Below are positions 1 to 28,368 of a stretch of 60,341 nucleotides of DNA, one piece after another. The stretch's first letter is position 1. Each line of letters begins with the position of its first letter. Source of the stretch: a virus. Location: the IMG/VR virus record IMGVR_UViG_3300045391_002463; one strand, given 5' to 3'. Both the position numbers and the translations under genes were made by a program. The notes below the pieces were generated by a model. That model was not told the origin of the DNA. It made no database searches and saw nothing but the letters and a program-made list of their open reading frames with translations.

Positions 1-69
1 CTCTGCCTGCGCAATGCCGGATGGCCCGATGACCGACCTGTTTGGACAGGATCTTGCCCCTGTGGACCC
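1..69. repeat. Terminal direct repeat, left copy (circular-assembly overlap or terminal redundancy)
   Basis: Bases 1-69 are identical to 60273-60341, compared base by base. Confidence 0.95.
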
Positions 70-754
70 TTCAGCGCCGCGGGCCTCCGCAAAGGCTTCG
101 ACGACCCGCGCCACCTTTGGCCGGAATGGTTTCGGCTCATCTGCGTCAGCCGGCCTCACAAGCTCTTTGGTGAGCAATCTGCGGACGCGGACACGTGGCT
201 CGATCTTGTATCGGCTGACATGGAAGGCGTCGGTTACGCCTTCGGGGCGGCTGATATTCCGGCTGCGGGCTTCGGAGGCGCCCACCGGCGACAGCGCTTT
301 GGCTTCGTGGCCGACGCCAACCACGCCGAGCGGTGGGCAGAGCGTGCCCCCTGGCACGACGGCCGGTGGCCGCAGACCGGACGGGTCGAAGGCCACGGTC
401 ACCCTGGAGAACATCGCCTGCCTGGCAGGATGGGCGACGCCGACGACCAGCGAGGGCACTGGAGCCAAGCGAGCGGACAACAAGCAGGGGGGCGAGAGCC
501 TGCGGACGCAGGCTCTCCTAGCGGGATGGCCGACGCCCATGGCGGGAAGCCCTGGAACGGACACCTACAACGAAGCCGGGAACACGGACTCATCTCGCAA
601 GACGGTGGCGTTGTTGATTGGCTCCTCTGCCGAGACGCCCGCTGGCGGCCGGTTGAACCCGGCACATGCCCGCTGGTTGATGCGAGTCCCGCCCGTCTGG
701 GACGCCTGCGCCTGTACGGCGATGCTATCGACGTCGAGGCGTTCACGAACCTGA
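14..754 (+). CDS. Alternative-frame ORF superimposed on the methyltransferase body
   Basis: 246-aa track ORF in frame 2 with three spaced GW(P/A)TP repeats and an RWLMRVPPVWD tail. Hand-counted third-position GC is higher than in frame 1 over 331-630. Confidence 0.3.
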   Translation: MPDGPMTDLFGQDLAPVDPSAPRASAKASTTRATFGRNGFGSSASAGLTSSLVSNLRTRTRGSILYRLTWKASVTPSGRLIFRLRASEAPTGDSALASWPTPTTPSGGQSVPPGTTAGGRRPDGSKATVTLENIACLAGWATPTTSEGTGAKRADNKQGGESLRTQALLAGWPTPMAGSPGTDTYNEAGNTDSSRKTVALLIGSSAETPAGGRLNPAHARWLMRVPPVWDACACTAMLSTSRRSRT

Positions 755-806
755 TCGGCGCCTACCTGGACGCCGAAGCCGAGCTCTCCAGTCAGTCGAG
801 GGCCGC

Positions 807-1091
807 ATGATCAGCCCCCACCCCACCCTTCAGGCAGCCGAGCGCACCTGCCCCGTCACCGACGGACCGTGCCGCGCCCAGGCCTGTGCCGACGTCCCCT
901 GCGGCCGTCCTGTGCAGACGATGGCCTTCGCACAGCTCCGCCAGTCGCTGAGCGGCTACACCGGGCGCATCCCCTTCAACCTCCCCGTCCGCCTGATCGT
1001 CAACGGCATCGCCCACCCGGTCGAGGCCGTGTGGTTCGAGCCCGGCCAGGACGGGACCGGGGCCATCTGCATCGGGAGCGACCCGCGATGA
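807..1091 (+). CDS. hypothetical protein
   Basis: 94-aa track ORF. Its ATG overlaps the upstream stop (ATGA) and its stop overlaps the next start. Confidence 0.5.
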   Translation: MISPHPTLQAAERTCPVTDGPCRAQACADVPCGRPVQTMAFAQLRQSLSGYTGRIPFNLPVRLIVNGIAHPVEAVWFEPGQDGTGAICIGSDPR

Positions 1092-1816
1092 AAGCCAGGC
1101 CCATCCTTTTCTCCGGCGCCATGGTCCGCGCCCTGCTCGCCGGGACGAAGACGCAGACTCGGCGCACGATCAAGTGGCCTCGCGGCGCGGCCAGCTGTGT
1201 CTGTCAGCCTCCCGCCTGGAGGTGCGATAACGGCTGGTACTGCGCGACCTGTGGTGGCGGGGTCCGGCTGACGGCTCGCGACGTGGCCAACACCGATTGC
1301 CCCTACGGCGTCCCCGGCGACCTGCTGGTGGTGCGCGAGACGTGGGCCTGCCACTACGCCACGAACGACCAGCGTCCGGCCGACATCGACCCCAACCTCT
1401 GGAGCGTCCGCTACGCAGCCGACGGTCACATCCGACCGGCCGCCTCCGACGGAAGCCGCGCTCTCCCGCAGCAATTCACGAAGACGCGCGTGTCCATCCA
1501 CATGCCCCGCTGGGCCTCCCGCCTGACGCTCGAGATCACGGAGGTTCGGGTCGAGCGGCTGCGAGAGATTTCGATCAGCGACGCCAAGGTCGAAGGGATC
1601 GTGCAATTGCGCGGTGCCGACAAGGACGGAATGCAGCACTGGGGCGTGCCGGGTCTGAACATCGACGCGCCGATGCCCGACACCGCCTACCTCAGGCTTT
1701 GGGCGCACATCAACGGCGACGGTGCGGCAGCCGCCAACCCCTGGGTCTGGGCCGTCTCCTTCAAGGTCCACCAGCAGAACGTCGACGCGCTGCTGAGCGA
1801 GCGGGTGGCGGCATGA
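1088..1816 (+). CDS. ASCH/PUA-like phage protein (tentative)
   Basis: Start placed at ATG 1088 inside track ORF 869..1816 (MKARPILFSGAMVRALLAGTKTQTRR, LLVVRETW). The pattern resembles ASCH-type phage proteins. Confidence 0.55.
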   Translation: MKARPILFSGAMVRALLAGTKTQTRRTIKWPRGAASCVCQPPAWRCDNGWYCATCGGGVRLTARDVANTDCPYGVPGDLLVVRETWACHYATNDQRPADIDPNLWSVRYAADGHIRPAASDGSRALPQQFTKTRVSIHMPRWASRLTLEITEVRVERLREISISDAKVEGIVQLRGADKDGMQHWGVPGLNIDAPMPDTAYLRLWAHINGDGAAAANPWVWAVSFKVHQQNVDALLSERVAA

Positions 1817-2229
1817 CCACGCCCGTCGCCATCCCCATCGACCTGCCCTGGCGCGAGGTGCCCGAATGGATCGGCAAGACGCCCGACTCCAAGGTCCCGA
1901 CCGCGGTCAAACTGCGGGTGTTCGCCCGCTGGGAAGGCCGCTGCCACCTCACGGGAGCGAAGATCCAGGTCGGAGACGACTGGGACGTTGAGCACGTCAA
2001 GCCGGTGCGAAGCGCGCTGCCTGGCCAGCCGCACCTGAACCGAGAGACCAACCTTCGCCCGGCCCTGCGCGAGCCACACCGGGAGAAGACCGCCCAAGAG
2101 AACAGCGACGGCGCCAAGGCCGATCGCATCCGGGCAAAGCATCTCGGCATCTGGCCGAAGTCCAAGACGCCGCTGAAGTCGCGCGGCTTCACGAAAACCC
2201 GCCAATTCCGCCCCGAGGAACAAGCATGA
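1813..2229 (+). CDS. HNH endonuclease
   Basis: Start at ATG 1813 (ATGA overlap) inside track ORF 1297..2229. GRCHLTG ... DVEHVKP ... NL ... HREKT matches the HNH core spacing. Confidence 0.7.
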   Translation: MTTPVAIPIDLPWREVPEWIGKTPDSKVPTAVKLRVFARWEGRCHLTGAKIQVGDDWDVEHVKPVRSALPGQPHLNRETNLRPALREPHREKTAQENSDGAKADRIRAKHLGIWPKSKTPLKSRGFTKTRQFRPEEQA

Positions 2230-3068
2230 GCACCCTGGATCTGGAGGGTTTGAAGGCGCTGTTGGAGACGTCTAGCGATCCAGAGTCGCGGGAAGCGGCC
2301 AGAACAGCGCTTGTGCGCGCAGCCCCCGCATTACTCGATCTAGCCTTCAACAACATCACCGCAGATGGCGGCTCTAAGATCGAACTGTGGGATTACTATA
2401 GTGCTTTCACTAGAGCATCCGGGTTTGATGGGATTACCGACTGCGTAACTCGTGCCCAAGCCACCGAGGAAAGAGCGCAGAGGGCGGAGGGGGAGAACGC
2501 GAGTCTAATTTCCGAGAACCGTGAACTTCGGCGCAAGGCGTTGCCGGTCGGTGGAACTGACCGAGGGGAGCGCCGAGCCGCAGCGAGCAAATTGCTTTGC
2601 GATATCTGCGCGTGCGCAGCCGAAGCGGACCCCGAAAGCATGAACCTACCGCATGTTGTGGAGGGGTGTGTCGCGCCTCTGGAGGTGCTGATCGCCGAAC
2701 GTGACGCGTGCCTCTATCTGCTGCAACAAGCACACAAGGTTCACGGCCGGGATGTGATCGACGCGATTGTCGAGAAAGCCGCTGCTGAGCGCCGCGCCCA
2801 AACCGCCGAAGCCGAGCGCGATGCGCTGAAGGAGGAGCGAGCATTCCTACTACTGGCCGAACAGCGGGCCATCCTCGCCCAACAAGATCTCCAAGCCAGG
2901 ATCAGGGAATTAGAGGCGGGGCTGGAGCGTATTGCTGACGGCTCGCTTTTCAATCAACTGCGATACGCCGAGGAAGACGACACTGACTACTTTCTCCGGT
3001 GCTACCGAATAGTTGCCGGGTATGCCCGCTCCCTCCTCCAACAACCCGTAGAAGGGGATAAGCCGTGA
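2226..3068 (+). CDS. hypothetical coiled-coil protein
   Basis: 280-aa track ORF in a visibly lower-GC segment, rich in heptad-like E/R/A/L stretches. Its stop overlaps the GTG start of tnpB (GTGA). Confidence 0.6.
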   Translation: MSTLDLEGLKALLETSSDPESREAARTALVRAAPALLDLAFNNITADGGSKIELWDYYSAFTRASGFDGITDCVTRAQATEERAQRAEGENASLISENRELRRKALPVGGTDRGERRAAASKLLCDICACAAEADPESMNLPHVVEGCVAPLEVLIAERDACLYLLQQAHKVHGRDVIDAIVEKAAAERRAQTAEAERDALKEERAFLLLAEQRAILAQQDLQARIRELEAGLERIADGSLFNQLRYAEEDDTDYFLRCYRIVAGYARSLLQQPVEGDKP

Positions 3069-4135
3069 TCAAGGCCTACAAGTACCGCGTCAAGGATCGG
3101 CGCGTCGCAAAGCGGCTGACGGCCCATGCTTACGCCTGCAACCAGGTGTGGAACTGGTGCGTAGCGCAGCATGAGGACACCCTGGCGCGCCACCGAGCCG
3201 GGGGCCCTAAGCGCAAATGGCTGTCTGCGTTCGATCTCGCCAAGCAGTGCGCGGGAGTGGGGAAGGATCTCGGCATTCATCAGCAGACCGTGCAATCGGT
3301 TTGCGATCAGTTCGCGACGAGCCGGGCGCATCGCCCCCATTTGCGGTTCCGTTCCAGCTTCGGCAAAAAGCGCGCCAGAGGATGGGTGCCGTTCCAGCGC
3401 CAAAGCCGCCGGATCACCGACGATGCTGTCACTTATCTCGGACAGACGTACCGAGTGTTTGGAGCCAAGCGGCGCCAGATTCCTGAGGCGGCCGGTGGCG
3501 GGTCCTTTGTCGAGGACGGTCGAGGACGCTGGTGGCTTGTCCTTCGCGTAGAAGCGCCAGACCCGATAGCGGCTAACGATGGCGCGGTCGGCATTGACCT
3601 TGGCCTAAAGGATTTCGCCGCCCTCTCGACCGGAGAGAAGATCGCCGCGCCGCGCTATTTCCGACAGCTTGAGGTCAAACTGGCCGCCGCCCAACGCGCT
3701 AGAAACAGACGCCGAGCGGCGGCGATCAGCGCCAAGATCGCCAATACCAGGCGCGACTTCCACCACAAGCTTTCTACCCGCCTCTCCCGCGATTACGCGT
3801 TCATCGCCGTGGGAGGCGTCAGCGCTAAAGCCTTGGCTCGTACTCGGATGGCAAAGTCCGTCCACGATGCCGGGTGGTCCACGTTCCGCCAGATGCTCCG
3901 GTACAAGTCGCCGGGCTATCGGGAAGTGGACGAGGCCTTCACGACCCAAACCTGTTCTTCGTGCGGCTCACTACCGCCGGAGAGGCCGCGAGGTATCGCA
4001 GGGCTTGGAATAAGGGAGTGGAGCTGTTCAGCCTGTGGGGAAACCCACGACCGCGACGTGAACGCGGCCCTGAACATCCTCGCTCTCGGGCGCAGTGCCG
4101 CGCCTCGTGCTGACGAAAGCCGGAGGGTCGCATGA
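3065..4135 (+). CDS. tnpB: TnpB-like protein (IS200/IS605 accessory family) lacking the canonical RuvC-II glutamate
   Basis: 356 aa. It has MIKAYKYRV, RuvC-I GIDLGLKDF, a zinc finger (CSSCG...CSACG) and RuvC-III HDRDVNAALNIL. At the RuvC-II position it reads FIAVGGVSAKAL, with no acidic residue. Confidence 0.85.
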   Translation: MIKAYKYRVKDRRVAKRLTAHAYACNQVWNWCVAQHEDTLARHRAGGPKRKWLSAFDLAKQCAGVGKDLGIHQQTVQSVCDQFATSRAHRPHLRFRSSFGKKRARGWVPFQRQSRRITDDAVTYLGQTYRVFGAKRRQIPEAAGGGSFVEDGRGRWWLVLRVEAPDPIAANDGAVGIDLGLKDFAALSTGEKIAAPRYFRQLEVKLAAAQRARNRRRAAAISAKIANTRRDFHHKLSTRLSRDYAFIAVGGVSAKALARTRMAKSVHDAGWSTFRQMLRYKSPGYREVDEAFTTQTCSSCGSLPPERPRGIAGLGIREWSCSACGETHDRDVNAALNILALGRSAAPRADESRRVA

Positions 4136-4545
4136 CCGGCCGGATAGGTACGACCAACACCACCAAGGATGGTCTCCCCTCCCCGCCAGACTTGAGAGAA
4201 CAGGTGGCGCGGACATGCTGCTACTGGGCCGATCCGGCCAAGAACGGAACCTGCCACGACGCTTACTGCTCGCATGAATGTCGCGCGGTCGAGCCTGAAA
4301 AGCAGTTCTTCGACATGGCCGACGCCATCCTCGCCCTCTTCACCCCTCCCGCCGGTCGGCTAGAGGTCGGAACCGACGCGCTGGATGCTCGGCGCTATCG
4401 TCGCCTTCGCGTCCTCGGGTGCGCGGTCATGGACACGCCACAACTCGACGCCGGCACGGTCGTTCGGTTCACCGGTTTGGACGAGATCATGGACCAGGAC
4501 TTGGAGCGATATCCCTCTCGCGGCGAGGCCAACCCCCATGCCTAA
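4132..4545 (+). CDS. hypothetical Cys/His-rich protein (start uncertain)
   Basis: 137-aa track ORF whose ATG overlaps the tnpB stop (ATGA). It contains CCYWADPAKNGTCHDAYCSHEC. Hand-counted GC3 is about 73% throughout. It overlaps the region where a TnpB guide RNA would be expected. Confidence 0.45.
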   Translation: MTGRIGTTNTTKDGLPSPPDLREQVARTCCYWADPAKNGTCHDAYCSHECRAVEPEKQFFDMADAILALFTPPAGRLEVGTDALDARRYRRLRVLGCAVMDTPQLDAGTVVRFTGLDEIMDQDLERYPSRGEANPHA

Positions 4546-5611
4546 CCTATTAGAAGAGGTATTGGAGCTGCTGGCCCAAGCCTACGAACAGGGTTGCTGC
4601 GACACGCACACGTCGATCCAGGCCGAACCGGAACTAGCCCTAATGCCCGTCGAGTCAGCCGAATTCGGCGAGGCAGCGCGCGACTATGCGCACCGCGCCC
4701 TCACCACCTACATCCGACAGTCCATAGAGGATAGGAGTGCCGAGCCGTCCTCGGATGCTTCCGATAGCGCATCCCCAGCCGCTGACGTTGTGGAGAAAAC
4801 CGCGCGCATCATTGGCGATAACTTCAGTCCGAACGTCACCTTCGACAAATCATCGGCAGCCACTCAGGCGGCCTGTCGTCGCGCCGCATGGGCACTTACG
4901 GGACTGAAGGTGGAGCACACGTTGTCCATGTCCGATGAGGAGATCATGGCCGAGCCCGGCGCTCGTGAGGCTGCGGAAGAGGTCGGCCGTGTGTTGGATC
5001 GCGCGCTGGCCATCCACGACATCGGCAAGGTGCGCGACAGACTCCAGGCGGCCTATGACGATGCAAACGGGGCACCCGGCTACCGCAACTTCTGCGGCCA
5101 CCTTGCCGAGCAACTGAGCGGCGCCCTTGCGCGGCTAGCGGCTGGGCAACCCCTCAACGGGCTGGCACGGGACGGCTCGGGAACCCAAAAAGACCCCGTC
5201 GCCCGCCATGTAGAGACGGAGGAGAGCCTGGACGAGGCTCTTGCAGAAACTGGCTGCCGCGACTTCGCCGACCTTACGGACATGGCCAGAGTCGGCAAAT
5301 CGCTCTTGGAGAGCATCGACGCCCTGGTCAAGCATCCCGGCCCGTTTCATGGCTGGATGCCGAACGATGACCCGGCGGAAATCGTCTTCGACCTCGTGAA
5401 CCACTACGAGGACGCCGCCCGACCCCAAGGCCATACGGAGGGCTGGCGGCTTGTGCCGGTAGAGCCGAGCGAAACCCTGATTGAAGCCATGGCTACGGCT
5501 TACGAGACCAGCCTGTGCATCGACCCGATGGGCTCCATGGAAGACGCCTACCGCGCCATGCTCGCCGGCGCTCCTGCTCCTCCTTCATCTACCGAGGAGC
5601 CGCGCTCATGA
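4538..5611 (+). CDS. hypothetical acidic protein
   Basis: Start placed at ATG 4538 (MPNLLEEVLELLAQ) inside track ORF 4385..5611. Its stop overlaps the start of the second tnpB (ATGA). Confidence 0.6.
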   Translation: MPNLLEEVLELLAQAYEQGCCDTHTSIQAEPELALMPVESAEFGEAARDYAHRALTTYIRQSIEDRSAEPSSDASDSASPAADVVEKTARIIGDNFSPNVTFDKSSAATQAACRRAAWALTGLKVEHTLSMSDEEIMAEPGAREAAEEVGRVLDRALAIHDIGKVRDRLQAAYDDANGAPGYRNFCGHLAEQLSGALARLAAGQPLNGLARDGSGTQKDPVARHVETEESLDEALAETGCRDFADLTDMARVGKSLLESIDALVKHPGPFHGWMPNDDPAEIVFDLVNHYEDAARPQGHTEGWRLVPVEPSETLIEAMATAYETSLCIDPMGSMEDAYRAMLAGAPAPPSSTEEPRS

Positions 5612-6888
5612 GCCTGTCGGAGGAGAATGCGGCGTCCGTGATGCGCAGCCAGACCGTTCGCCTTTACCCCACAGCGGCTCAGGCCGAACGGTTGAGCCAG
5701 TGGGCCGGCACGGTGCGGTTCGTCTACAATTTGGCGCTTGAGCAACGTAAGACGTTCTGGCGGCCGGGCAGGCATTTCAACTACGCCACTCAAAGCCGGG
5801 AAATCACAGAGCTGCGCGCCACTGTCGAATGGATCGCGGACGTGCCCCGCAGTCCGCTTAGCTACGCGCTGAGCGATCTCGACCAGGCTTATGCTAATTG
5901 GTGGGCCGGCCGCGCAGGCGCGCCGTCCTATAGAACTCGTAGGGAAAACGACTCATTCAGGCTGCAGGGCCGCGATTGCAGCTTGCGTCGTACGTCTCGG
6001 CGGTCTGGCCAACTGCGCATTCCAAAGCTGGGAGACATTCGCTTCAGGTGGACTGGGGCGACGCCAGCGACATGGGTGAATTGCACGATCTATCGCCGTG
6101 GGGGCGCATGGTTCGCGGCGGGGCCGCGCACAGTTGAGGCCAGGGCGCCCGCGTGCTCGCCGCAGATGGTCGGGGTTGACCGCGGCATACGAGCCTTTGC
6201 CGCTCTATCCTCTGGCGAGCTGGTTGTAGGGCCGAACCCCGGCCGGCGAGCAGCCAAAACGCTAGCGCGCGCGCAACGGAATTTGTCCCGCAAGCAGAAG
6301 GGGTCGCGCAACCGCGACAAGCAACGACGGCGTGTGGCGAAGCTGCATATGCGGCTGGCCGACGCCCGGAAGGACTTTCTCCACCGGATCAGCACGGCCA
6401 TCGCCCAGAACCACGGCACGGTCGTTCTTGAGGACTTGAAGGTGAAGAACATGACCAGGCGCGCGGTCGGTAAGGGGCGCGCCGCCAAATCTGGCCTCAA
6501 CCGATCCATTCTCGACCAGGGATGGGGCACCTTCCGCCAAATGCTGGCCTACAAGCTAGCGGAGCGCGGCGCCCGTCTGATCCTAGTTGCCGCCAACGAC
6601 ACGAGCCGCACCTGTGCTGCCTGTGGCGTGGTGGACGGGGACAGCCGAAAGGCCGAGCGGTTCAAGTGCACCGTCTGCGGCCATGAGGCCGACGCGGACA
6701 CGAATGCCGCGATCAATATTCTACGCCGGGGACGCGCCTCGGTTCTGCCTGTGGAGGCTTCGGCATGCGAGCCGGCCCATGAAGCAGGAACCAGTCGGAC
6801 GGCATCTCGCCTGTTCGTCAGCTCGGAAACGAGTGGATGCGGAGCTTCTATAGGGAAGGTCGCTTTCCCTGGGGGTGTTTCCAGATGA
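5608..6888 (+). CDS. tnpB: TnpB RNA-guided nuclease (IS200/IS605 OrfB family), catalytic triad present
   Basis: Start at ATG 5608 inside track ORF 5515..6888. It has VRLYPT, RuvC-I GVDRGIRAF, RuvC-II VVLEDLKVKNM, a zinc finger (CAACG...CTVCG) and RuvC-III ADADTNAAINIL. No tnpA is nearby. Confidence 0.9.
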   Translation: MSLSEENAASVMRSQTVRLYPTAAQAERLSQWAGTVRFVYNLALEQRKTFWRPGRHFNYATQSREITELRATVEWIADVPRSPLSYALSDLDQAYANWWAGRAGAPSYRTRRENDSFRLQGRDCSLRRTSRRSGQLRIPKLGDIRFRWTGATPATWVNCTIYRRGGAWFAAGPRTVEARAPACSPQMVGVDRGIRAFAALSSGELVVGPNPGRRAAKTLARAQRNLSRKQKGSRNRDKQRRRVAKLHMRLADARKDFLHRISTAIAQNHGTVVLEDLKVKNMTRRAVGKGRAAKSGLNRSILDQGWGTFRQMLAYKLAERGARLILVAANDTSRTCAACGVVDGDSRKAERFKCTVCGHEADADTNAAINILRRGRASVLPVEASACEPAHEAGTSRTASRLFVSSETSGCGASIGKVAFPGGVSR

Positions 6889-7304
6889 GCGCCGGACTTC
6901 GCGTATTGGTCTGCGGCGGTCGCGACTACGACAACTGGACGGCGTTCGCAGCCGAGATGGACATGCACGCCAAGCGCATGAACATCGGCCTAGTCGTGTC
7001 AGGCGGAGCGCGCGGAGCCGACACGATGGCCAAAGATTGGGCCCTCTCGCGCGGCATCCCCGTCGCTATCTTTCCTGCCAACTGGACGAAGCACGGCAAA
7101 GCCGCCGGCCCGATCCGAAATCAGTCCATGATCGACTTCATGCGTCCGGATGTGGTGATCGCCTTCGCTGGCGGTCGCGGGACGGCTGACATGATCCAAC
7201 GGGCCATCAACGCCGACGTGACGGTGATCCAGTGCATGACTATCCGGTTGACGCCCACAGATACCAATGGTAGTGTTTCCTTCATTGGGGCAGTCGTCCC
7301 TTAG
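6885..7304 (+). CDS. DUF2493 / SLOG-family (YspA-like) protein with an IS-derived C-terminal extension
   Basis: Start at ATG 6885 (ATGA with the tnpB stop). VLVCGGRDY ... VVSGGARGADTMA ... AFAGGRGTADM is the DUF2493 pattern. The last 23 codons lie inside the IS that starts at 7235. Confidence 0.75.
   Translation: MSAGLRVLVCGGRDYDNWTAFAAEMDMHAKRMNIGLVVSGGARGADTMAKDWALSRGIPVAIFPANWTKHGKAAGPIRNQSMIDFMRPDVVIAFAGGRGTADMIQRAINADVTVIQCMTIRLTPTDTNGSVSFIGAVVP
7227..7234. repeat. Target-site duplication ATCCAGTG, left copy
   Basis: The identical 8-mer is found at 8884-8891, immediately outside the inverted repeats. Confidence 0.85.
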
Positions 7305-7319
7305 CTGATGGAGGTTTTG

Positions 7320-7454
7320 ATGAGCGCCCAGGTCATTCAGTTCAGGCAGCGCGAACCGAAGGAGATGGTTCTCCCGGTAGAAAAGCCGTGCCCTGGTCCC
7401 GGCTGGCGTCTTCAAGACGGCAACAACTGGTTCAATAAGTGGGTGAGGTCTTAG
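7320..7454 (+). CDS. small hypothetical protein (IS passenger)
   Basis: 44-aa ORF not in the track (under 60 aa). TGGAGG lies 5 nt upstream of ATG 7320, and its TAG is followed directly by the next ATG. Confidence 0.45.
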   Translation: MSAQVIQFRQREPKEMVLPVEKPCPGPGWRLQDGNNWFNKWVRS

Positions 7455-7658
7455 ATGCCGACCCTCAATCTCACCAAAGCCGAGGCCTTCGCCTTGCAAC
7501 AGATGGTCACTCTTGAAATCGGTTCGGGCGCGGTGGCCGATGGGATCGCAATGGGCGTCGTGCCCAAGTTCGACGCCGATAAGCTCAGGGCGAAGGTCAA
7601 CTACATCTGCCCGTTCAGGTGGGAAATTGAGCACCTGTTTTCCGAAGAGGGAGCCTGA
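7455..7658 (+). CDS. hypothetical protein (IS passenger)
   Basis: 67-aa track ORF, contiguous with its neighbours. Confidence 0.5.
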   Translation: MPTLNLTKAEAFALQQMVTLEIGSGAVADGIAMGVVPKFDADKLRAKVNYICPFRWEIEHLFSEEGA

Positions 7659-7661
7659 GCC

Positions 7662-7868
7662 ATGGGCCGCCCGACGATGCGCCAATTGCGAAGCTGGCAT
7701 CGCAGGCTGACGACGGCGCACGCGAAAGCGGTTGCCGTGAGCCGGGAGGCTCAAGCCATTCTTCCCGACGATGGCAGCGAATTGACGATCATCATGGACC
7801 CGATCGTCGAGTTGCACGCCGCCCTGTGCTGCATCGAAGGGTTCATTGAAGAGCGGGAGGGCCGGTAG
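7662..7868 (+). CDS. hypothetical protein (IS passenger)
   Basis: 68-aa track ORF. Its TAG is followed immediately by the transposase ATG. Confidence 0.5.
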   Translation: MGRPTMRQLRSWHRRLTTAHAKAVAVSREAQAILPDDGSELTIIMDPIVELHAALCCIEGFIEEREGR

Positions 7869-8867
7869 ATGGCCGACCTTCCCTTCCCGCGCTCGCTGCC
7901 CGAGTTCCAGAAGCTGTTCCCCGATGACGCGGCGTGCGCGGCCTATCTGGAGGCGGCCAAGTGGCGCGAAGGGTTCGTCTGCGCCCACTGCGGAACCGCT
8001 GGCGAGCCCTTCCGCTTCGAGGCGCGGCCCGGTGTGCTGCGTTGCCGGAAATGCCGAAAAGACAATCGCTTGACCGCCGGAACGGTCATGGAGGGCACAC
8101 ACACGCCGCTCAATGTTTGGTTCTGGGCGGCCTACCTCGTTAGCAGCCAGACGCCCGGCATGAGCGCGGTCCAATTCCAGCGCCAGCTTGGGCTCAGCCG
8201 CTACGAAACCGCCTTCCAAATCCTTCACAAGCTGCGCGCCGCGATGGTGCGCCCGGACTCGGATCGGATCGGCCAGATTGAAGATCACGTCGAGGTCGAT
8301 GAGGCCTGGATCGGCGGCAAGACGCGCGGCGAAGGCCGGGGCGTCCATGACCAAACCCTGATCGCCTGCGCCGTCGAAGTCCGCCAGCGCGACCCGGCCT
8401 CGCCGCTCAACAAGCGCAAGGGTGGCAGGATCGCTGGGCGCATCCGTCTGTCCGTTGTCGATGACCGCACCGCCAAGTCGCTCTGTGGCTTCGTGGAAGC
8501 CGCCGTGAACCCGAGCACGATGGTCGTGACAGACGGGTGGAACGGCTACGCCAGCCTCGCCAAGCGGGGCTATGAGCACCTGTCCTGCGCCGAGAACGAT
8601 GACCCCCAGGTCGCCGAGGACTACCTGCCCATGGTCCACATGGTCTTCTCGAACCTGAAGACCTGGCTCAAGGGCACGCACCATGGCGTGAGCCCCCAGC
8701 ACCTTCAGGCCTACCTCAACGAGTTCACCTTCCGCTTCAACCGCCGCCACTACCCGTTCAACAGCTTCCGCTCGTTGCTCGGGCTCGCTGGCGGCAACGA
8801 GGCTCCCACCTATGCCAGCCTGTATTCGGGCGATTGGCACCATCCTAAATGTGGTGGTCATGGGTGA
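7869..8867 (+). CDS. IS1595-family (ISXO2-like) DDE transposase
   Basis: 332 aa. It has an N-terminal zinc ribbon (CAHCG...CRKCR), then DEAWIGG, VVTDGWNGY and YLNEFTFRFNRR, typical of IS1595 transposases. Confidence 0.85.
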   Translation: MADLPFPRSLPEFQKLFPDDAACAAYLEAAKWREGFVCAHCGTAGEPFRFEARPGVLRCRKCRKDNRLTAGTVMEGTHTPLNVWFWAAYLVSSQTPGMSAVQFQRQLGLSRYETAFQILHKLRAAMVRPDSDRIGQIEDHVEVDEAWIGGKTRGEGRGVHDQTLIACAVEVRQRDPASPLNKRKGGRIAGRIRLSVVDDRTAKSLCGFVEAAVNPSTMVVTDGWNGYASLAKRGYEHLSCAENDDPQVAEDYLPMVHMVFSNLKTWLKGTHHGVSPQHLQAYLNEFTFRFNRRHYPFNSFRSLLGLAGGNEAPTYASLYSGDWHHPKCGGHG

Positions 8868-8883
8868 AAACCGGATAGGCATG

Positions 8884-8891
8884 ATCCAGTG
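8884..8891. repeat. Target-site duplication ATCCAGTG, right copy
   Basis: Identical to 7227-7234. It supplies the GTG start of xis. Confidence 0.85.
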
Positions 8892-9146
8892 AACGCCCCG
8901 CGCCTGCTCACCGAGCGCGCCGCTGCCGAATACCTGTCCATCCCGGTCGCCGGGGTGCGCAGGATAGCGGCTGGCCGCGTGGTGCTCGATGGGCGGGTGC
9001 GCTGGGATCGGCTGGCGCTGGACGAGTGGCTTGACGCCATGCGCGGGCGTGCCCCAACGTCGGCCGCCAACCAGAACCAGACCAAGGCCGATGCCGCGCT
9101 CGCCGAGTGGCTTGCAGACCAGACGAATGCTGCCCGGAGTTCATAA
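8889..9146 (+). CDS. xis: excisionase / AlpA-type HTH protein
   Basis: 85 aa with a GTG start. LLTERAAAEYLSIPVAGVRRIAAG is an HTH, and the gene lies directly upstream of and overlapping int. Confidence 0.65.
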   Translation: MNAPRLLTERAAAEYLSIPVAGVRRIAAGRVVLDGRVRWDRLALDEWLDAMRGRAPTSAANQNQTKADAALAEWLADQTNAARSS

Positions 9147-10188
9147 GGTCCGGGTGAGGCTGGCCACGGGGCGCGCCGAGTATTGGTACGCCTGGCGGGG
9201 CGGTCCGCGCATCCTCGCGTGCAAGGCCAAGACCGCTGAGGATCTGGCGCGGATGGTGGATGCTGCGGCGCCCGCAGCCATCGCGCAGTTCAAGGTGCTG
9301 GTACAGCCGCCTTCGGCCGATGCCTTCGTTTCCGGCCTGATCACGAAGTTCCTGGACAGCCCAGCGTATTTGGGGCTCGGCGCCACGCGGCGATCCGACC
9401 TATCCCGTTATCTGGACGCGGCGCGGACCGGTGTAGGCACAATGCCCTTAGAGGCCCTGGCGTCGGCAGGGACGCGCAAGGTCCTGCTCGACTGGCGGGA
9501 CAAGTTCAAGGCCACGCCATGCACGGCCGACAACCGTCTCGGCGCCCTCGCGCAAGTGCTCGCCTGGGCGAAGAAGGACGGACTGATCACGGTCAACCCG
9601 CTGGAGGAATGGCCCCGCATCTACAAGGTCGACCGCGCCGACATCATCTGGACGAAGCCCGACCTGATCCGGTTGCTCACCGGGGCCGATGCCGATTTCC
9701 GGAGAGCTGTCCTGCTGGCGGCCTTCACGGGCCTTCGCCTCGGTGATCTGGTCAAGGTGACCTGGGCCAACGTTGGCAAGGACGCGATCACGCTGGCCAC
9801 ATCCAAGAGCAACGGCAAGCGGGTGGTCGTGATCCCGATCACGCCAAAGACCAGGGCCATCCTCAAGCAGATCGGGCGCAAGGATGTCGGGACGGTGCTC
9901 ACCCACTCGCGCGGCAAGCCCTGGACCGGCTGGGGCCTGCAGACGGCCATGCAGCGGGCGAAGAACCGGCCGGGCCAAGACATCGAGGGCCTGCGCTTCC
10001 ATGACCTGCGGGGCACAGCCGCCACCCACTTCATCCGGGCCGGTCTGCCCATGGCCGATGTCGCGACCATAATGGGATGGGCGCCGGCTCAGGTGGAGGC
10101 GATTGCCCGGCGCTACGTCACGTCGGAAGCGGTTGCAGCGGGCATGTTGGAGCGGCTAAGGAAGAACAAAGGCGGGGCGCGTTTGTAA
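9127..10188 (+). CDS. int: tyrosine integrase
   Basis: Start at ATG 9127 inside track ORF 8989..10188. It has LLAAFTGLRLGDL (Arg), HDLRGTAATH (HxxR) and a C-terminal RRYV (Tyr). attP lies immediately downstream. Confidence 0.9.
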   Translation: MLPGVHKVRVRLATGRAEYWYAWRGGPRILACKAKTAEDLARMVDAAAPAAIAQFKVLVQPPSADAFVSGLITKFLDSPAYLGLGATRRSDLSRYLDAARTGVGTMPLEALASAGTRKVLLDWRDKFKATPCTADNRLGALAQVLAWAKKDGLITVNPLEEWPRIYKVDRADIIWTKPDLIRLLTGADADFRRAVLLAAFTGLRLGDLVKVTWANVGKDAITLATSKSNGKRVVVIPITPKTRAILKQIGRKDVGTVLTHSRGKPWTGWGLQTAMQRAKNRPGQDIEGLRFHDLRGTAATHFIRAGLPMADVATIMGWAPAQVEAIARRYVTSEAVAAGMLERLRKNKGGARL

Positions 10189-19012: not shown

Positions 19013-20176
19013 CCAGTTCAGCAGCTCCACCACGCCGCCCGAGCCGGAGGCACCGGCCCCGGCAAATAAGACCTTGGTTGGCGTCGAGATGAATGTGCCG
19101 ATGGCCTCGCTGTACTGATTGGTGAAGTTCTGGCCGCTCATCGACTGATCATAATAGAGCGTCGTGCAGTCATTGCGGATCTGCACCCACGCGGACGGCA
19201 TCAGCATAAAGGACGCGGATGCCCAACTGGAGACGCCACCGCCCCACGTCCCGGTGTTGGCGGTCACCGTGCTCAGATGGCCGACGATCATGCTCGCCGT
19301 CGCTCCCCACGATCCGAGGACGCTCAGCTTCGTGCCATCATAAAATCCGATGCCGCCGAACTGGGACGGACTGCCGCCGCCCTTCGAATAGCCGACGAGC
19401 TGAGCCCTCAGCCTGTAGGGACAGGACGGCGGCGATAGGCCGAGGGCCGAGACCTGGGAGGTGTTGGTGGTGTTCAGCGCGATCGCCTGGCCCGAAACGG
19501 TCTGCGTCGCCGTTGCGCTCTGCTGATTGAGCCAGGTAAAGCTGGCGAGGGTCGGCGTGCTATAGGACGCGCCCGGCGCGCCGCCGCCCCCCCCGCCGCC
19601 GCACGCCGCCCCCGCGTCCTGAAGCGCCGTGGAGCTGGCCCACGACGCGCAGTTGCCGGTCGTGGGCGTGCCCGAGATGGTCGCGCCGCTGATCGTGTTG
19701 CAGCCGAACCCGCTGGCCGAGGTCCAGGTCAGGGCGCTGGACGAGGCGCTGCACGACGGCATCGACAGTGCCGAGGGCGACGCGCTGGAGCCTGTTCCAT
19801 TGCCGACGACGGTGTTGGCGCTCACGGACGCGATGTGACCCACAGGAAGGCTGCAGGTCAGGCTGAGCGTGCCCGAGGTTGAGCAGTCGCCAGAGAGGTC
19901 GCCGTTGGTGACCGAAGTTGAGCCAGAGAACTTGGTCAGATTGCCGGAAGCTGGCGTGCCCGTGGTCGTGATGCCGGCCGTAATTCCGAGGTTGGTCCGC
20001 GCGGCGGCGGCTGTCGTCGCCCCGGTGCCGCCGTTGGCCACGGGGACCGTATCCCCGGCCTTCATGGTGATCGCCCCGCCGCCGTAATTGGCCAGCGGGG
20101 TCTTGTCGGCCGCCGGGGCCACAACGGGCGCGCACGCCAGCCAGAGGGCCAGCAGGCCCACGATCAATCGCTTCAT
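18983..20176 (-). CDS. secreted tail-fibre-like protein with a lectin-like C-terminus
   Basis: 397 aa. The Sec-type leader is MKRLIVGLLALWLACAPVVAPAA. It carries the fibre motif PVANGGTGATTAAAARTNLG and a Cys-rich middle, and is the last gene of the tail operon. Confidence 0.5.
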   Translation of the reverse strand: MKRLIVGLLALWLACAPVVAPAADKTPLANYGGGAITMKAGDTVPVANGGTGATTAAAARTNLGITAGITTTGTPASGNLTKFSGSTSVTNGDLSGDCSTSGTLSLTCSLPVGHIASVSANTVVGNGTGSSASPSALSMPSCSASSSALTWTSASGFGCNTISGATISGTPTTGNCASWASSTALQDAGAACGGGGGGGAPGASYSTPTLASFTWLNQQSATATQTVSGQAIALNTTNTSQVSALGLSPPSCPYRLRAQLVGYSKGGGSPSQFGGIGFYDGTKLSVLGSWGATASMIVGHLSTVTANTGTWGGGVSSWASASFMLMPSAWVQIRNDCTTLYYDQSMSGQNFTNQYSEAIGTFISTPTKVLFAGAGASGSGGVVELLNWSVSSTSSLN

Positions 20177-22437: not shown

Positions 22438-23343
22438 TCAGACCTCTTCGATTTCGAGCTGAATGGTCGCGGTGAAGGGCTGGTCGAAGGTGATCGAGAA
22501 CGACTTGTAGACGCCGCAGATCACCCCGCTCTCGAAGGCGTCGCTGGTCTCGTCGTCGAGCCAGGACCAGACCGCCGGGACGGCGTTGAGCTCGTCGCGC
22601 ACGGCCCGGATCTTGTCGACGGCGGCCCGATCGCAGATCGCCGTCTGCGTGGTCTTGGGGACATTGCGGCGTTGGACGAGGATCGCGTTGCCGAAGATGT
22701 CACGGTCGATGGTCGAGAAGTTGAGCACGTCGGAGACCGGGTTCTGCACCGTCTCGCCGAGCTCGACCGACTTGCCGACGATCAGGCCGCCGCAGGTCAC
22801 GTCGCCGGCCGCCTTCGAGATCGACACCGTGATCTGCGCGCCGGAGAACGCAGGCAGGTCGAGGCGGATCATGGTCTGGCGGAAGCTGAACGGCTCGAAG
22901 AAGTAGTCCGACCAAGTGGTGACCTCGCGCAGGTTGAGGTCTTCGGTCACCGAGTAAACGGTCGCGCCGCCGCTCACCATTTCGATGGTCACTTCGTCGG
23001 CGTCGAGCCCCACCAGCGCGAGGGCGTTGACCCGCTGCCCGGGCGCGATGATCACCGTCAGCGGCGTCGGGCCCGTGGTCCCGGCGCTCCGCAGCAGATC
23101 GAACATCGCCCACTTGTTGGTGGCGCCGATGTCGCTCCAGTTCTCCGAGTCCTGGTCCGGGCTGGTCGCGGTCGTGCCGGCGACGAGGCGCTGATAGACC
23201 CGATGCGTCGAGACCAGGATGGCCTTGTCGCCGATGGCGTAGGCCGTGGCGGCGTCCCAGGCGGTCTCGCCGGCGTCGGGCTCGCTGACCGTGCTGGAGA
23301 TCAGCTGCAGGTCGCCGATGGTGATGGGCGGGATCACCAGCAT
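22438..23343 (-). CDS. distal tail protein (putative)
   Basis: 301-aa track ORF immediately after the tape measure gene. Confidence 0.45.
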   Translation of the reverse strand: MLVIPPITIGDLQLISSTVSEPDAGETAWDAATAYAIGDKAILVSTHRVYQRLVAGTTATSPDQDSENWSDIGATNKWAMFDLLRSAGTTGPTPLTVIIAPGQRVNALALVGLDADEVTIEMVSGGATVYSVTEDLNLREVTTWSDYFFEPFSFRQTMIRLDLPAFSGAQITVSISKAAGDVTCGGLIVGKSVELGETVQNPVSDVLNFSTIDRDIFGNAILVQRRNVPKTTQTAICDRAAVDKIRAVRDELNAVPAVWSWLDDETSDAFESGVICGVYKSFSITFDQPFTATIQLEIEEV

Positions 23344-26300
23344 CAGGCAGGCACCTTCAGTTCGGTCTGGATGGAGTCGCCGTCACGGCTGACGCGCAGG
23401 AACAGGTCGCGGATGTTCTTGAGGAAGCCCTGGCCGACCTTGGCCTCGGTGCGGAAGCCCCGCAGTTCCGCCTCGATGCTCTCCAGGCGGTCGACGACCG
23501 CACCCCAGCCGCCGTTGTCGTTCATGGCCCGCACGCCGAGCGAGCCATCCGGCCCGCGGTGCAGCGGCATGATCGCTTCGGACCCCGCCTCGCCCATCAG
23601 GCCCATGTCGAACAGGGTCGGGCTGCTGACCACGCCGTTGGTGAAGGCGGCGCCCTTGGCGAACGGCCGCACCGGGCGGTTCTCCAGCATGCCGGAATGT
23701 TCCCACTGGAACTGGCCGAAGCCGGCGACGGTCGGCTGCAGTCCGGCGGCCTGGATGGTCTGCTGCCAGACCGGGTTGTCCTTCACCGAGTTGTAGGAGG
23801 CCAGCAGGTCCGGGCTCTGCTGGACGTAGGCGGCGTAGTCGCCATGGGTCGAGGTGTAGGAGCCGCCGCCTGGATTGGACGCCGCAGGCGTGGTCGTCGG
23901 CGCCGTGGCAGCGACCCCCGCTTGGGCCGTCAAGGCGGCCTGCAAGTTCGCGACTGCCTGGGCCACCGTCAGGACGCTCTGGTTGACCGTCTGTAGGCCG
24001 CCGACCTGGGCGTTGGCCACGTCGAGTTGCTGTTGCGCGATCGAGACTTGGCTGTCGGCCTGGGCCTTCGCCGCAGTCGCGGACTGGCGGGCGAAAGCAA
24101 GATCGCGATCGTAGGAGGCCTTGTCCGGCGCGAAGGCCTTGGCGGCGTCGAGGAACGCCTGAACGCCCCCTTGGACATCGCCGAGCGCCGAGGTGTCGCC
24201 GGTCGTCACGCGGGAGTTGATCCCGGCGAGCTGAGACTTGGTGAGCGCGAACTGGCGCGCCGGGTCGTTCATCGCCGCATCGCCGGTCAGCAGGCTCTGC
24301 AGCAGATCGGCGAGATTGTCCGAGGCAGACTTTGCCGCGTTGGCGATGTCGGACAGGGCGCTTGCCGCCGTCGAGACGTTGTCGTTCGCCGCCGAGATGG
24401 CGGTGTTGTAGTCCTGCCAGGCGTACGTCTGCTTCTTGATCGCCGCAGTCGCGTCATCGAGGCCCTGCAGCTCCTGGCGACGCTGTTCCTCAAGGCCCTT
24501 CTGGGCCTGGCCCGAGGCGGAATAGAACTCGAGGATGGCGCTCGAATAATTCTGGGTCGACTGCTGCAGGATGGCGTAGGCCGCGGCCGTCGTCGTCGCC
24601 AGGTCGGCCAGCTGTTGCTTGGCCGCCGCCTTGGCCGCATCGTCGTGGGCAGTGGAGAGGCCGAACAGGTTGAACTTGGCGATCAGGAACCCACCGAGGC
24701 CGCCGGCGAAGGGTGACGTTTCGTTGGCCACCTTCTTGTCGCCACCGAAGGCCGAGGTCAGGGCATTGCCCAACGCCTGGCTGAGCTGCATGGCCGCCGC
24801 AATTTCGGGGACCACGCTGCTCAACTGGCCGATCATGCCGGCGAAGCCTTGCATGCCCAGCGCATTGGCCGCCGTTCCCATGGCGTTGAGCAGGTTCGCC
24901 GAGGCGTTGACGTAGTCGCCTTTGTTAAAGGCCGACGACATGCTGTCGAGCGAACCGGTGATCTTGTTGTAGGACTGCAGGAAGGTGTCCTGGGCGGCCT
25001 TGGTCTGGTTGGCCTGCACCTTCTCCAGCGCCGCGAGATCGGCCCGGGCCTGGGCGATGGCGACCTGGTTGTGGGTCGCCTCAACCGCCGCCAGCGCCTC
25101 CTGCGCCTTGCTCGTGGCGATCTGCTGCTCGACGGCCAGGATCTGCTTGTCCAGCGTGTCGCGCTGGAAGCCGTACTCCAGTGTGTCCTTCTGGCTCGAC
25201 AGGATTTCGGCTTGGTTTTGCAGGGCGTCCTGCTGAACGCCAGCCTGCTGGTGGATCAGGTCCACCACCTTCTGCTGGTCGATCAGCTGCTGCTTGTAGC
25301 CGTGCGCGCTGTTGATGGCGTCGATCTGGACCTGCGCGGCCTTAGCCTGTGCCTCGGTGGCCTGGCCGAGCTTGGCCGAGGCGATCACCTTCTGCTGCTC
25401 GGCGATAGCGCTCTGATCGGCCAGGTTCAGCAGCGTCGTCTCGATCTTGGCGCGCTCGCTGATGTCCGTGACCAGGGCCTGCTGGGCGTCGAGGATCGAG
25501 GTGGCCGCGGAGTTCTGGGCGATGGCGAGGTCCGCGGCCTGCTGCTGCAGCTTGTCCTGCGTCTGCAGGTCGATCTGCTTAGCGCGATCGGCGTTGGCCT
25601 GAGCGTTGATGCCGGCGGCGCGCCGCATTGCGCCAGCGATGGCGCCACGCTGCGCGTCATTCAGGCTCTTGTCGAGGTTGAGGTCGATGATCTGCTGCTG
25701 CAGTCGCGCCTGGTCGGCGGCGGTCTGGTAGCGCAGGGCCTGCTTCTGCAGGTCTGCCTGCTTGACCACGTCGGCGGTCAGTCCGGCCTCCGCCTGGGCG
25801 CGAGCCGCCAGCGCTTGCAGCACGGCTGCCTGCTGCGCCGAGGTCTGGCTCTGGGCGGCGAGCGGATCGCCGATGTCGCCGAGGGGGCCGAGCGTCTTGA
25901 CGTGCTCCTGGTCCTTCTGGAACGACAGCCGGGCCATCTGGTCGACGGTGTCGGCGATGGCCCCTTGCGACATGCCCGGAGAGACGCCGAAGCCCATTGA
26001 GCGGAGCCGCAGGCCCTCGGCGTTCTTGTCGAGCACGCCTTTCAGGTCGTTGATCTGGTCGTCCAGGGTCTTCGGCTTGCCGAGGCCGAGCAGCTTGTCC
26101 CACATCGACGAGGCCGCCTCGCCGACCTTGTGCAGGGCGGTCTCGATGTAGCCGTATTGGACGACGTGTTTCTGGATCGCGCTGTTGGCGTCACGGAAGA
26201 ACAGCAGTTGGGCCTCGTGCCACTTCCCCTCTTCCTCAAGCTTGGCGATCTCGTCGACCTGGGCCTGGGTGAGGTCGTGGTAGGACTGGACGTGCTTGAT

Positions 26301-27557: not shown

Positions 27558-27559
27558 GC

Positions 27560-28368
27560 TCAGCCTCCTTTCGGTTTTCGGCCCATGAGGCCGCGGAACA
27601 GGGCCTTGAGGCCCGTGGGGTTGGACACGGGGATCGCGCCATCGGCGGTCTTCTCGCGGCCCTTGGGCTTGGTGATCTGGCCGGCCCACACCGTGATCAC
27701 GGCGTCATCGACGCGCATGAGCAGGTCCGCCTCCCAGGCCGAGAAGTGGACCAGGGCCTTGCGCTCGAAAGCCTCGAGCTCGCAGTAGGTCAGGGGATTA
27801 GCCGCCATCCCGGCCTGCCGGCGGCGGGATAGGCGACCGTAGAAGTCCCACAGGTAGCGAAGCTCCAACGGGAACTCCGGCAGATCGTCGGGCTTGACGT
27901 TCTTCCGGCTGGAGGCCTCGGCGTAGGCGATCAGGTCGCCGGCGAGGCCTTCATAAAACGGGCGCGCTCGGTCATCGCCGTGTCGAGCTGATCTCGGATG
28001 ACCTGAAGCTTGCGGTTGGAATACAGCTTGTTCACCGCCGCCGCGTTGAACGGTACCTTGCCTTCGCCCAGTCCGGGATCGATGCCAGGCACGAGCTTGG
28101 AGGGGGTGATGTTCCAGCCGGTCGTGCACTTCACCAGCAGCGAGACAGCTTGGGCGTCCATCGTCTCGGAAGTGAGTTGCACGCCGCGCGCCCCCTGCTT
28201 CATCCGCAGGTTACCCGTGGCGTGCTTGGCGGCCACGCACACGTCGGAGTCGACGCCGAGCACAGTGATGGTCATCGGCGTGCCGTCTTCGTTGTAGAGC
28301 GGCGTGCCGTCGATGCCAGCGAGCTCGACTTCGGCGCCGTCGTCGGGGGAATAGACTTTCTCGGTCAT
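27560..28368 (-). CDS. tail assembly chaperone frameshift product (GT-like, -1 frameshift near 27955-27960)
   Basis: Track ORF 27560..28129 is in the -1 frame relative to 27931..28368 and overlaps its 3' end. A CGTTTTA run (TTTT at 27955-27958) lies at the overlap. Confidence 0.6.
27931..28368 (-). CDS. tail assembly chaperone (G-like)
   Basis: 145-aa track ORF between the tail tube and tape measure genes. Confidence 0.75.
   Translation of the reverse strand: MTEKVYSPDDGAEVELAGIDGTPLYNEDGTPMTITVLGVDSDVCVAAKHATGNLRMKQGARGVQLTSETMDAQAVSLLVKCTTGWNITPSKLVPGIDPGLGEGKVPFNAAAVNKLYSNRKLQVIRDQLDTAMTERARFMKASPAT

Follow-up and report, generated by a model that had tools for sequence, protein, structure and literature searches.

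A phage-borne TnpB with a relocated RuvC-II glutamate, a predicted omega-RNA scaffold and family ends of the IS1595 type

IMGVR_UViG_3300045391_002463 is a viral DNA stretch of 60,341 nucleotides from the IMG/VR collection, called here the window and used in full for all position numbers. At 3065..4135 it carries an open reading frame (ORF) for a homologue of the RNA-guided nuclease TnpB, which we call TnpB1 and whose RuvC-II strand lacks the canonical glutamate. The question raised by this locus is whether the nuclease has died or the glutamate has moved. The initial annotation, made from the letters and their ORFs, favoured a domesticated, RNA-guided DNA-binding regulator of a temperate phage and gave a nuclease with a rearranged active site in parentheses. 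It is the parenthetical reading that homology, conservation and topology support. We give a probability of about 0.78 to the view that TnpB1 is a relocated-glutamate RNA-guided nuclease with its own omega-RNA, borne on a non-autonomous element of the IS1595 type that now lacks its left repeat.

That the 356-residue protein has the layout of a TnpB is confirmed by the ORF call, by profiles and by phmmer. The NCBIfam profile guided_TnpB (NF040570) matches residues 5-340, nearly the full length, at 201.1 bits against a cut-off of 100, and both Pfam families, OrfB_IS605 and Cas12f1-like_TNB, exceed their cut-offs. The phmmer alignment to ISDra2 TnpB (8exa/8h1j; E = 6e-29) places YAFIAVGGV under YEIIGTEHL, so that Gly250 occupies the position of ISDra2 E278 and the strand holds no acidic residue, as had been noticed from the sequence. 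D178 in GIDLG, D331 in HDRDVN and both CxxC pairs are kept. The residues in question, numbered as in the TnpB1 protein, are encoded as follows.

3065..4135, plus strand: TnpB1 gene of the alternative-glutamate (RuvC-II-rearranged) type, GTG start, 356 amino acids, with profile and fold matches.
3596..3598, plus strand: codon of D178, the RuvC-I aspartate (GIDLG), Asp in 120/120 homologues and aligned to the ISDra2 RuvC-I motif.
3812..3814, plus strand: codon of G250, the canonical RuvC-II glutamate position (ISDra2 E278), Gly in 120/120, at the end of predicted strand 246-251.
3932..3934, plus strand: codon of E290, the candidate relocated catalytic glutamate, Glu in 120/120, six residues before C297.
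3953..4036, plus strand: zinc finger C297-x2-C300 ... C321-x2-C324, Cys in 120/120 at C297, C321 and C324 and in 119/120 at C300.
4055..4057, plus strand: codon of D331, the RuvC-III aspartate (HDRDVN), in an H-D-R-D motif invariant in 120/120.

These counts come from the best 120 relatives, which are 58-70% identical to TnpB1 and 350-400 amino acids long; among 8,000 relatives scored, 7,727 had E <= 1e-10. Position 290, inside the motif E-V-D-E-x-F-T-T-Q-T-C, is a glutamate in all of the 120, and in TnpB1 the segment E290-AFTTQT-C297 puts it exactly six residues ahead of the first CxxC of the zinc finger. The RuvC-I aspartate, the RuvC-III motif and the zinc-finger cysteines are invariant or nearly so throughout, alignment A3, with the query included, has 55 invariant columns, and at none of the columns fully conserved among the 120 homologues does TnpB1 depart from the family.

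In the AlphaFold2 model of TnpB1 (pLDDT 83.9, from a 67-sequence alignment), G250 stands where strand 246-251 ends, and the next strand, 285-289, is followed at once by E290. The glutamate would thus have moved from the fourth strand of the RNase-H fold, where Gly250 now stands, to a place just after the following one, so that the D178-E290-D331 triad is predicted to be complete and E290 would be the residue that serves in catalysis. The best Foldseek match of the model is ISDra2 TnpB 8h1j (E = 2e-20, TM score 0.63), the top matches being 8h1j, 8iaz and 8exa, and the model also matches ISFba1 TnpB and the mimivirus Fanzor2. In phmmer, the match of TnpB1 to Fanzor2 9b0l begins with query residue E287 opposite chain residue 464, and if the first positions are ungapped, E290 falls on residue 467.

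A displaced glutamate of this kind has been described under three names. Altae-Tran et al. (2023) described RIIr-5, a major TnpB clade with glycine in place of the RuvC-II glutamate; the loss is made good in their AlphaFold models by a second glutamate, in a RuvX-like arrangement (beta-5 for beta-4), and they considered the clade active and as mobile as other clades. Jiang et al. (2023) reported that Fanzors, and what they called "TnpB2", have their alternative glutamate about 45 residues further downstream, and showed that the E467A exchange abolishes cleavage by ApmFNuc and that the rearranged TvTnpB of Thermoplasma volcanium performs TAM-specific (target-adjacent motif), RNA-guided DNA cleavage with no collateral activity. 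Yoon et al. (2023) defined the residue, Ealt, by the regular expression ExxxxxxCxxC. Like TnpB1, the proteins of RIIr-5/TnpB2/Ealt have glycine in place of the canonical glutamate, an alternative glutamate about 40 residues on and six before the CxxC, the aspartates of RuvC-I and of RuvC-III, a four-cysteine zinc finger and an omega-RNA at the 3' end of the gene. The assignment of TnpB1 to this clade as an RNA-guided endonuclease, made by signature and not by tree, is well supported by the alignments, and by the same evidence the missing glutamate is a clade-wide relocation of about 40 residues downstream and not a sign of decay.

The nearest experimental relatives differ from TnpB1 in instructive ways. 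TvTnpB is carried by an IS605 element that has hairpin ends and encodes a Y1 TnpA, whereas the sub-clade of TnpB1 has IS1595-type repeats and 8-bp duplications. ISDra2 TnpB (8exa, 8h1j) shares the fold, the RuvC-I, zinc-finger and RuvC-III motifs and the drawing of its guide from DNA beyond the right end; unlike the TnpB1 family it has the canonical E278, IS605 hairpin ends and a TTGAT target, and makes no duplication. The mimivirus Fanzor2/ApmFNuc (9b0l) has the alternative and essential glutamate E467, and its sequence and fold matches to TnpB1 span the region of E290, but it is a eukaryotic-virus protein of 520 amino acids with a DPG RuvC-I motif in an IS607-type context. TnpB1 itself lies just outside the search expression of Yoon et al., with 109 residues from G180 to E290 and a spacing of 20 residues between its CxxC pairs.

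Homologous loci of independent origin, taken from viral contigs, from metagenomes and from two metagenome-assembled genomes and numbered L001 and so on, were aligned over their 3' regions. Conservation of the DNA runs beyond the tnpB stop as ...GAAAGCCGG, a hairpin of variable length and AACCGGATAGGCACG, and then ends abruptly, each locus continuing past AACCGGATAGGCACG with unrelated sequence. In the window the boundary falls after 4152, where ...CCGGATAGGTACG gives way to ACCAACACC... The parts of this region are listed here.

4026..4152, plus strand: 3' part of the omega-RNA scaffold, by covariance model and covariation, overlapping the last 37 codons and extending 17 nt past the stop.
4037-4039/4044-4046, 4051-4055/4063-4067, 4088-4093/4100-4105, 4106-4108/4113-4115 and 4120-4123/4140-4143, plus strand: scaffold helices.
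4138..4152, plus strand: right terminal inverted repeat (IRR), GGCCGGATAGGTACG, where the homologues share AACCGGATAGGCACG; its core matches the IS1595/ISAcr1 inverted repeat.
4153..4172, plus strand: putative guide segment, ACCAACACCACCAAGGATGG, the first 16-20 nt of flanking DNA, of presumed length.

Compensatory changes were found in three of the scaffold helices; that at 4088-4093/4100-4105, for example, varies across loci between the pairs GC:7/CG:6, UA:7/GC:6 and CG:6/GC:5. Over 24 pairs, 97.4% of the cells are paired, against 84.5% in shuffled alignments, and 35 cells are changed on both sides, against 14.3; neither value was reached in any of 500 shuffles, and helices slid along the alignment as controls were 28-42% paired. 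A covariance model built from 15 loci, with the window left out, has a single match in the window, on the plus strand at 4026-4152, over its full length (131.7 bits, E = 3e-37) and ending at the inferred element boundary; at Rfam gathering thresholds no omega-RNA family was found in the window. By sequence conservation and covariation this is the anatomy expected of a TnpB omega-RNA. The scan for a guide RNA that the initial annotation had suggested thus gave a clear match, and its statement that there was no room for left or right ends is wrong for the right end, since a compact boundary and a scaffold are present there, largely within the 3' coding sequence. Because the scaffold ends at the right boundary, 4152, the guide would be the next 16-20 nt of phage DNA (4153 to about 4172), a position and length carried over from the TnpB paradigm, in which the guide is the DNA beyond the right end. 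A search for a second target within the window, the DNA that was scanned, returned nothing convincing: one match with 2 mismatches, at 19453-19468, was equalled in 4 of 100 shuffles and is not significant. A scan of 1-9000 for promoters and terminators gave nothing above chance.

It is at this point that the domesticated regulator can be weighed. TnpB1 would then be a nuclease-dead, RNA-guided repressor of the TldR type, used by a temperate phage to bind, and not cut, a guide-matched promoter. The canonical glutamate is indeed absent, the gene is phage-borne as some TldRs are, its left transposon end is missing and its ORF abuts its neighbours; like TnpB1, TldRs derive from TnpB, are sometimes carried by prophages and have a guide RNA beside the gene, and they are without recognisable transposon ends. 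They differ from TnpB1 in having at least two mutations of the aspartate-glutamate-aspartate (DED) site, often a truncated C-terminus, a partner gene such as fliC or oppF, and a guide that matches a promoter. In TnpB1 only one DED position is changed, with glycine there and an invariant glutamate at a known alternative site in every one of the 120 homologues; the C-terminal zinc finger and RuvC-III, often missing in TldRs, are intact; no partner gene is conserved near the homologues; the guide is without a convincing second target in the window; and the glycine/glutamate pattern is shared by copies with fresh target duplications, that is, by mobile elements. In the TldR study itself (Wiegand et al.) alternative-glutamate TnpBs appeared as spurious "dead" calls, and for that reason the authors restricted TldRs to proteins with at least two DED mutations. 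We consider a nuclease-dead regulator at this locus very improbable.

The relocated-glutamate nuclease, then, belongs to a family of elements, and their ends are of an unexpected type. In many relatives CATGCYTATCCGGTT, an inverted copy of the right end AACCGGATAGGCACG, lies 23-50 nt ahead of the tnpB start, and the elements with two ends measure 1,105-1,156 bp. Three of the TnpB elements, independent of one another, lie between perfect 8-bp duplications (L077, CGACGAAG; L157, TCTGATAT; L169, AAAGACCT). The features of IS200/IS605-type elements are not those of this family, the ends being inverted repeats with 8-bp duplications; among the ORFs scanned over 1-21.7 kb of the window, neither a Y1 nor a serine-recombinase tnpA was found, in line with the initial annotation. 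What the ends do resemble is an insertion sequence (IS) in the same window.

7235..8883, plus strand: IS1595-family IS with a DDE transposase ORF at 7869-8867, repeats matching the TnpB-element family and an 8-bp duplication, ATCCAGTG.
7235-7249, plus strand: left inverted repeat (IRL) of this IS, CATGACTATCCGGTT.
8869-8883, minus strand: IRR of this IS, AACCGGATAGGCATG.
7227-7234 and 8884-8891: target duplication ATCCAGTG, perfect over 8 bp.

The transposase ORF matches Pfam DDE_Tnp_IS1595 at 6e-35 and is 70% identical at the amino-acid level to the transposase of ISAcr1, whose repeats are CTTGCCTATCCGGTTGAC... The IS itself sits at the 3' end of a YspA/SLOG-like ORF (6837-7304), just upstream of the integrase. 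Its end resembles those of the TnpB elements over about 24 nt, with up to 25 of 30 positions alike, and the TnpB-family repeat is common to transposase-bearing elements, 15-24 nt being shared with the window IS and ISAcr1. The exact 15-mer repeat occurs in at least 120 viral contigs. Among the matches listed there, 25 of 33 paired elements with the repeat have perfect 8-bp duplications; most of the paired elements listed are miniature inverted-repeat transposable elements (MITEs) of 256-976 bp, and two of about 1.75 kb carry a transposase. Examples from the viral contigs L175-L260 are the MITEs L191:12497-12755 and L196:4675-5148, and a further paired element is L242:1505-3233. In the MITEs with the same repeat neither tnpB, transposase nor omega-RNA scaffold was found, and the idea that they are guide-RNA carriers from which tnpB was deleted was rejected for want of a scaffold match, L076 being the only such derivative. 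The ISAcr1/IS1595 elements and MITEs thus share the repeat core GCCTATCCGGTTGAC and the 8-bp duplications with the TnpB1 elements and differ in cargo, carrying a DDE transposase or nothing where the TnpB1 elements carry tnpB and an omega-RNA.

Two small differences at the ends may bear on targeting. The right repeat of TnpB elements always ends in CACG, that of transposase-bearing elements in CATG or CAAG. At position -10 relative to the left repeat, immediately 5' of the duplication, a T stands in 11 of 12 left flanks, followed by a purine in 10 of 12 (L001, L002, L053, L077, L080, L092, L157, L158, L162, L164, L169 and window 7215-7234). These are no more than hints at a TAM, a self-avoidance signal or a site preference of the transposase.

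Distant relatives, 43-45% identical and also with glycine and Ealt, are found in the cultured phages Salmonella LPSTLL, Ralstonia Hyacinthe and Acinetobacter HFM1, and their TnpBs have an IS605-type right end (...GGGGAGGATGTCAA). In Hyacinthe (MT740743, our L166, 2014-3577) a divergent Y1 tnpA fragment, annotated ISMex20, adjoins the glycine/Ealt TnpB, and this IS605-type element is presumably the ancestral chassis of the clade. Because the ends of the TnpB1 sub-clade are of the IS1595 type while those of the distant relatives are of the IS605 type, the sub-clade has the look of a TnpB/omega-RNA module that was taken up between IS1595-type repeats and is mobilised in trans. TnpBs associated with DDE transposases are known from IS630, ISL2 and IS1031 types; they too have symmetrical inverted repeats, and solo TnpBs among them share the ends of transposase-bearing elements, whereas the TnpB1 family goes with IS1595/ISAcr1. 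In the papers searched, no mention was found of IS1595 or ISXO2 with TnpB, and no case was met of a transposase and a TnpB sharing a single pair of repeats. We speculate, at somewhat less than even odds, that an alternative-glutamate sub-clade left its IS605 chassis and was captured between ISAcr1-like repeats, its scaffold end of about 24 nt serving also as transposase site; it would travel as a phage passenger, with CACG and T-purine as a hint of targeting, and its one-ended copies may home.

The packing of TnpB1 among its neighbours had suggested a member of the phage early operon. The overlaps are real as sequence: the GTG of TnpB1 overlaps the TGA of the ORF at 2226..3068 (GTGA), and its TGA overlaps the ATG of the ORF at 4132..4545 (ATGA). 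As a sign of domestication they do not hold, for the element's own start and terminal repeat supply them. The start reads GTG-ATC in the window and in L077, which provides a ready-made TGA to any frame upstream, and the GCCGTGA junction at the end of an upstream small ORF is identical in L076. At the other end, 16 of 17 loci have a start codon 18-24 nt from the element end in a fixed frame (M-G-x-N-R-I-G-T). In most cases this codon shares bases with the TnpB stop, in the form ATGA, TGATG or TAATG, and gene callers begin the downstream gene at it in L171 and L173 too. Selection for read-through into downstream genes was considered and rejected: the end-encoded frame is open for at least 50 codons in 8 of 17 loci, against 6 of 17 and 8 of 17 for the other frames, so that no such selection is visible. 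The neighbouring genes of the homologues differ in every locus, which makes TnpB1 part of a mobile element and not an operon member. The ORFs flanking TnpB1 have no relatives beside any homologue, and those at 2226-3068 and 4535-5611 have none in the viral contigs and are unnamed by PHROGs and Pfam; the search of these contigs with the flanking ORFs found no pair of related phages with an empty and an occupied site.

The window as a whole is a temperate-phage genome or prophage, encoding an integrase (9130-10188), a tape measure protein (23343-27689), a large terminase (38634-40235) and a primase/helicase (43865-46501). TnpB1 lies in a co-oriented block in the order methyltransferase, phrog_874, HNH, ORF, TnpB1, two ORFs, a second TnpB (TnpB2, 5605..6888), YspA-like ORF, IS1595 element and integrase. 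Third-position GC is 0.63-0.76 in 2226-7304 against 0.83-0.87 at 1082-2229 and 7869-10188, and the region 2226-7304, with both TnpBs, looks like a compositionally foreign, accessory block rich in mobile elements, and not a defined early operon. The second, unrelated TnpB (5605-6888, plus strand) has an N-terminal helix-turn-helix and a canonical D-E-D site, confirmed in its VVLEDLK strand, and in the RuvC half its identity to TnpB1 is 34%; the TnpB1 omega-RNA model has no match near it. Elsewhere, 41629-41686 on the minus strand matches the Rfam tRNA model over its whole length (58 nt, 41.3 bits), is not called by ARAGORN, and could represent either a tRNA that is degenerate or truncated or what is left of an attachment site.

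Several points weigh against the account of a nuclease carried by an IS1595-type element. For the activity of the TnpB1 sub-clade the models are Fanzors and an archaeal TnpB that is only distantly related, so that it is an extrapolation, and the placement of E290 in the active site follows predicted strand order, not carboxylate distances to D178 and D331. Part of the covariance-model score is contributed by conservation of the protein-coding sequence. Five two-ended TnpB elements have no duplication. Around the other TnpB elements, no transposase was found in the 3-6 kb of DNA that was retrieved, and mobilisation in trans is thus drawn from the shared ends and the duplications only. The window copy, finally, keeps its ORF, scaffold and right repeat, but no left repeat was found upstream at up to 3 mismatches. 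Its right repeat agrees with the consensus at 12 of 15 positions (3 mismatches), and the variable hairpin before it is shortened. What may be left of the other end can be given as one further, tentative feature.

3019..3064, plus strand: possible eroded left end, in which the IRL core TATCCGGTT is lost.

In this segment only ...TATGCCCGCTCCCTCC...CCAACAACCCG weakly resembles L077. A 13-mer at 3016, 49 nt upstream of the start and similar to the right end, was rejected as a chance match, having 5 mismatches in 15 to the full repeat. The window copy is probably no longer transposable and, with its left repeat missing, its right repeat altered and its hairpin shortened, it could be heading to decay.

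Could it already be a non-functional remnant, its ORF open by chance and its protein and RNA idle? Besides the damage at its ends, one may point to the nearest homologue, which is only 70% identical, to the failure to find an identical copy elsewhere, and to the existence of internally deleted derivatives such as L076. Yet the 356 codons are uninterrupted, with the family residue kept at each fully conserved column, and the omega-RNA model matches the 3' end over its full length and in all helices. Shortened hairpins and one-ended copies also recur in intact phage-borne genes elsewhere (the L054 group, L171 and L173; L058 is a further one-ended copy with an intact gene), and from this recurrence we take it that such copies persist. 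A dead remnant therefore seems to us quite unlikely. The L076 derivative (L076:2889-3098), in a phage that shares the phrog_874 gene of the window, consists of about 45 N-terminal tnpB codons fused to the omega-RNA scaffold and right repeat, which the model matches at 67 bits (E = 3e-17). In the L054 group (L054:5548-5990, also L055-L057) a long tandem repeat right upstream of TnpB translates as GRSVGRSEGRSGGRS..., in frame with tnpB.

One-ended copies invite a second thought, namely that they form a phage-adapted lineage which spreads between phages by RNA-guided homing without transposition, the end-encoded ATG keeping the downstream gene translated. The closest relatives of TnpB1 would fit: the window copy, the L054 group, L058, L171 and L173 lie in recombination or accessory regions, have lost the left repeat and have kept the ORF, scaffold and right end; the fixed-frame start codon near the end, usually overlapping the TnpB stop, is present in all but one of 17 loci; and the homing concept has been discussed for OMEGA systems (obligate mobile element-guided activity) in the literature. 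The openness of the end-encoded frame, however, speaks against selection for read-through, the ATG is present in the end of the transposase-bearing IS as well, so that the repeat sequence alone can explain it, and related phages with empty and occupied sites were not found. A separate lineage of this kind is unlikely, if still worth bearing in mind. The L162 and L164 elements, two different members of the family, each with its own flanks on one 57-kb contig (IMGVR_UViG_3300021077_000161), suggest repeated acquisition by a phage.

Taken with the preferred reading of TnpB1 as a relocated-glutamate nuclease on an IS1595-type element, these observations allow a mechanism to be proposed. The family consists of elements of about 1.1 kb, made up of IRL, tnpB with its omega-RNA, and IRR. 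They are non-autonomous passengers, and a DDE transposase of the IS1595 family presumably moves them in trans; one with matching ends (7869-8867) lies 3 kb from TnpB1 in the same phage. The scaffold takes up the final ~110 nt of the ORF and a further 17 nt after the stop, and the adjoining phage DNA would be the guide. TnpB1 would cut guide-matched DNA beside a TAM, for instance an unoccupied allele in a co-infecting related phage or a sister copy, and through recombinational repair of the cut the element would be favoured to stay or to spread. Other TnpBs have been shown to act selfishly in this manner, in RNA-guided homing and maintenance, and by analogy with them this is the most likely mechanism of TnpB1, for which a TAM and activity of the window copy are presumed.

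When the RuvC-II glutamate of the textbooks is missing from a TnpB, the protein is usually not dead, and anyone scanning for domesticated RNA-guided regulators should look at the alternative position (E-x6-CxxC) before calling inactivation. TnpB1 otherwise belongs to a published clade, and the part worth following is the IS1595 link: the chassis of its family has ends in common with an abundant phage MITE family and with an IS of this phage that encodes a DDE transposase. Confirmation would lengthen the short list of DDE families with a TnpB, and would offer a compact natural case in which one sequence is both the end of a guide-RNA scaffold and a transposase binding site. It bears on how OMEGA systems move between transposon types and on a question still open, namely what benefit a cut-and-paste element has from TnpB. 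With 356 amino acids and a short scaffold embedded in its ORF, TnpB1 may also interest those who mine for compact editors without collateral activity.

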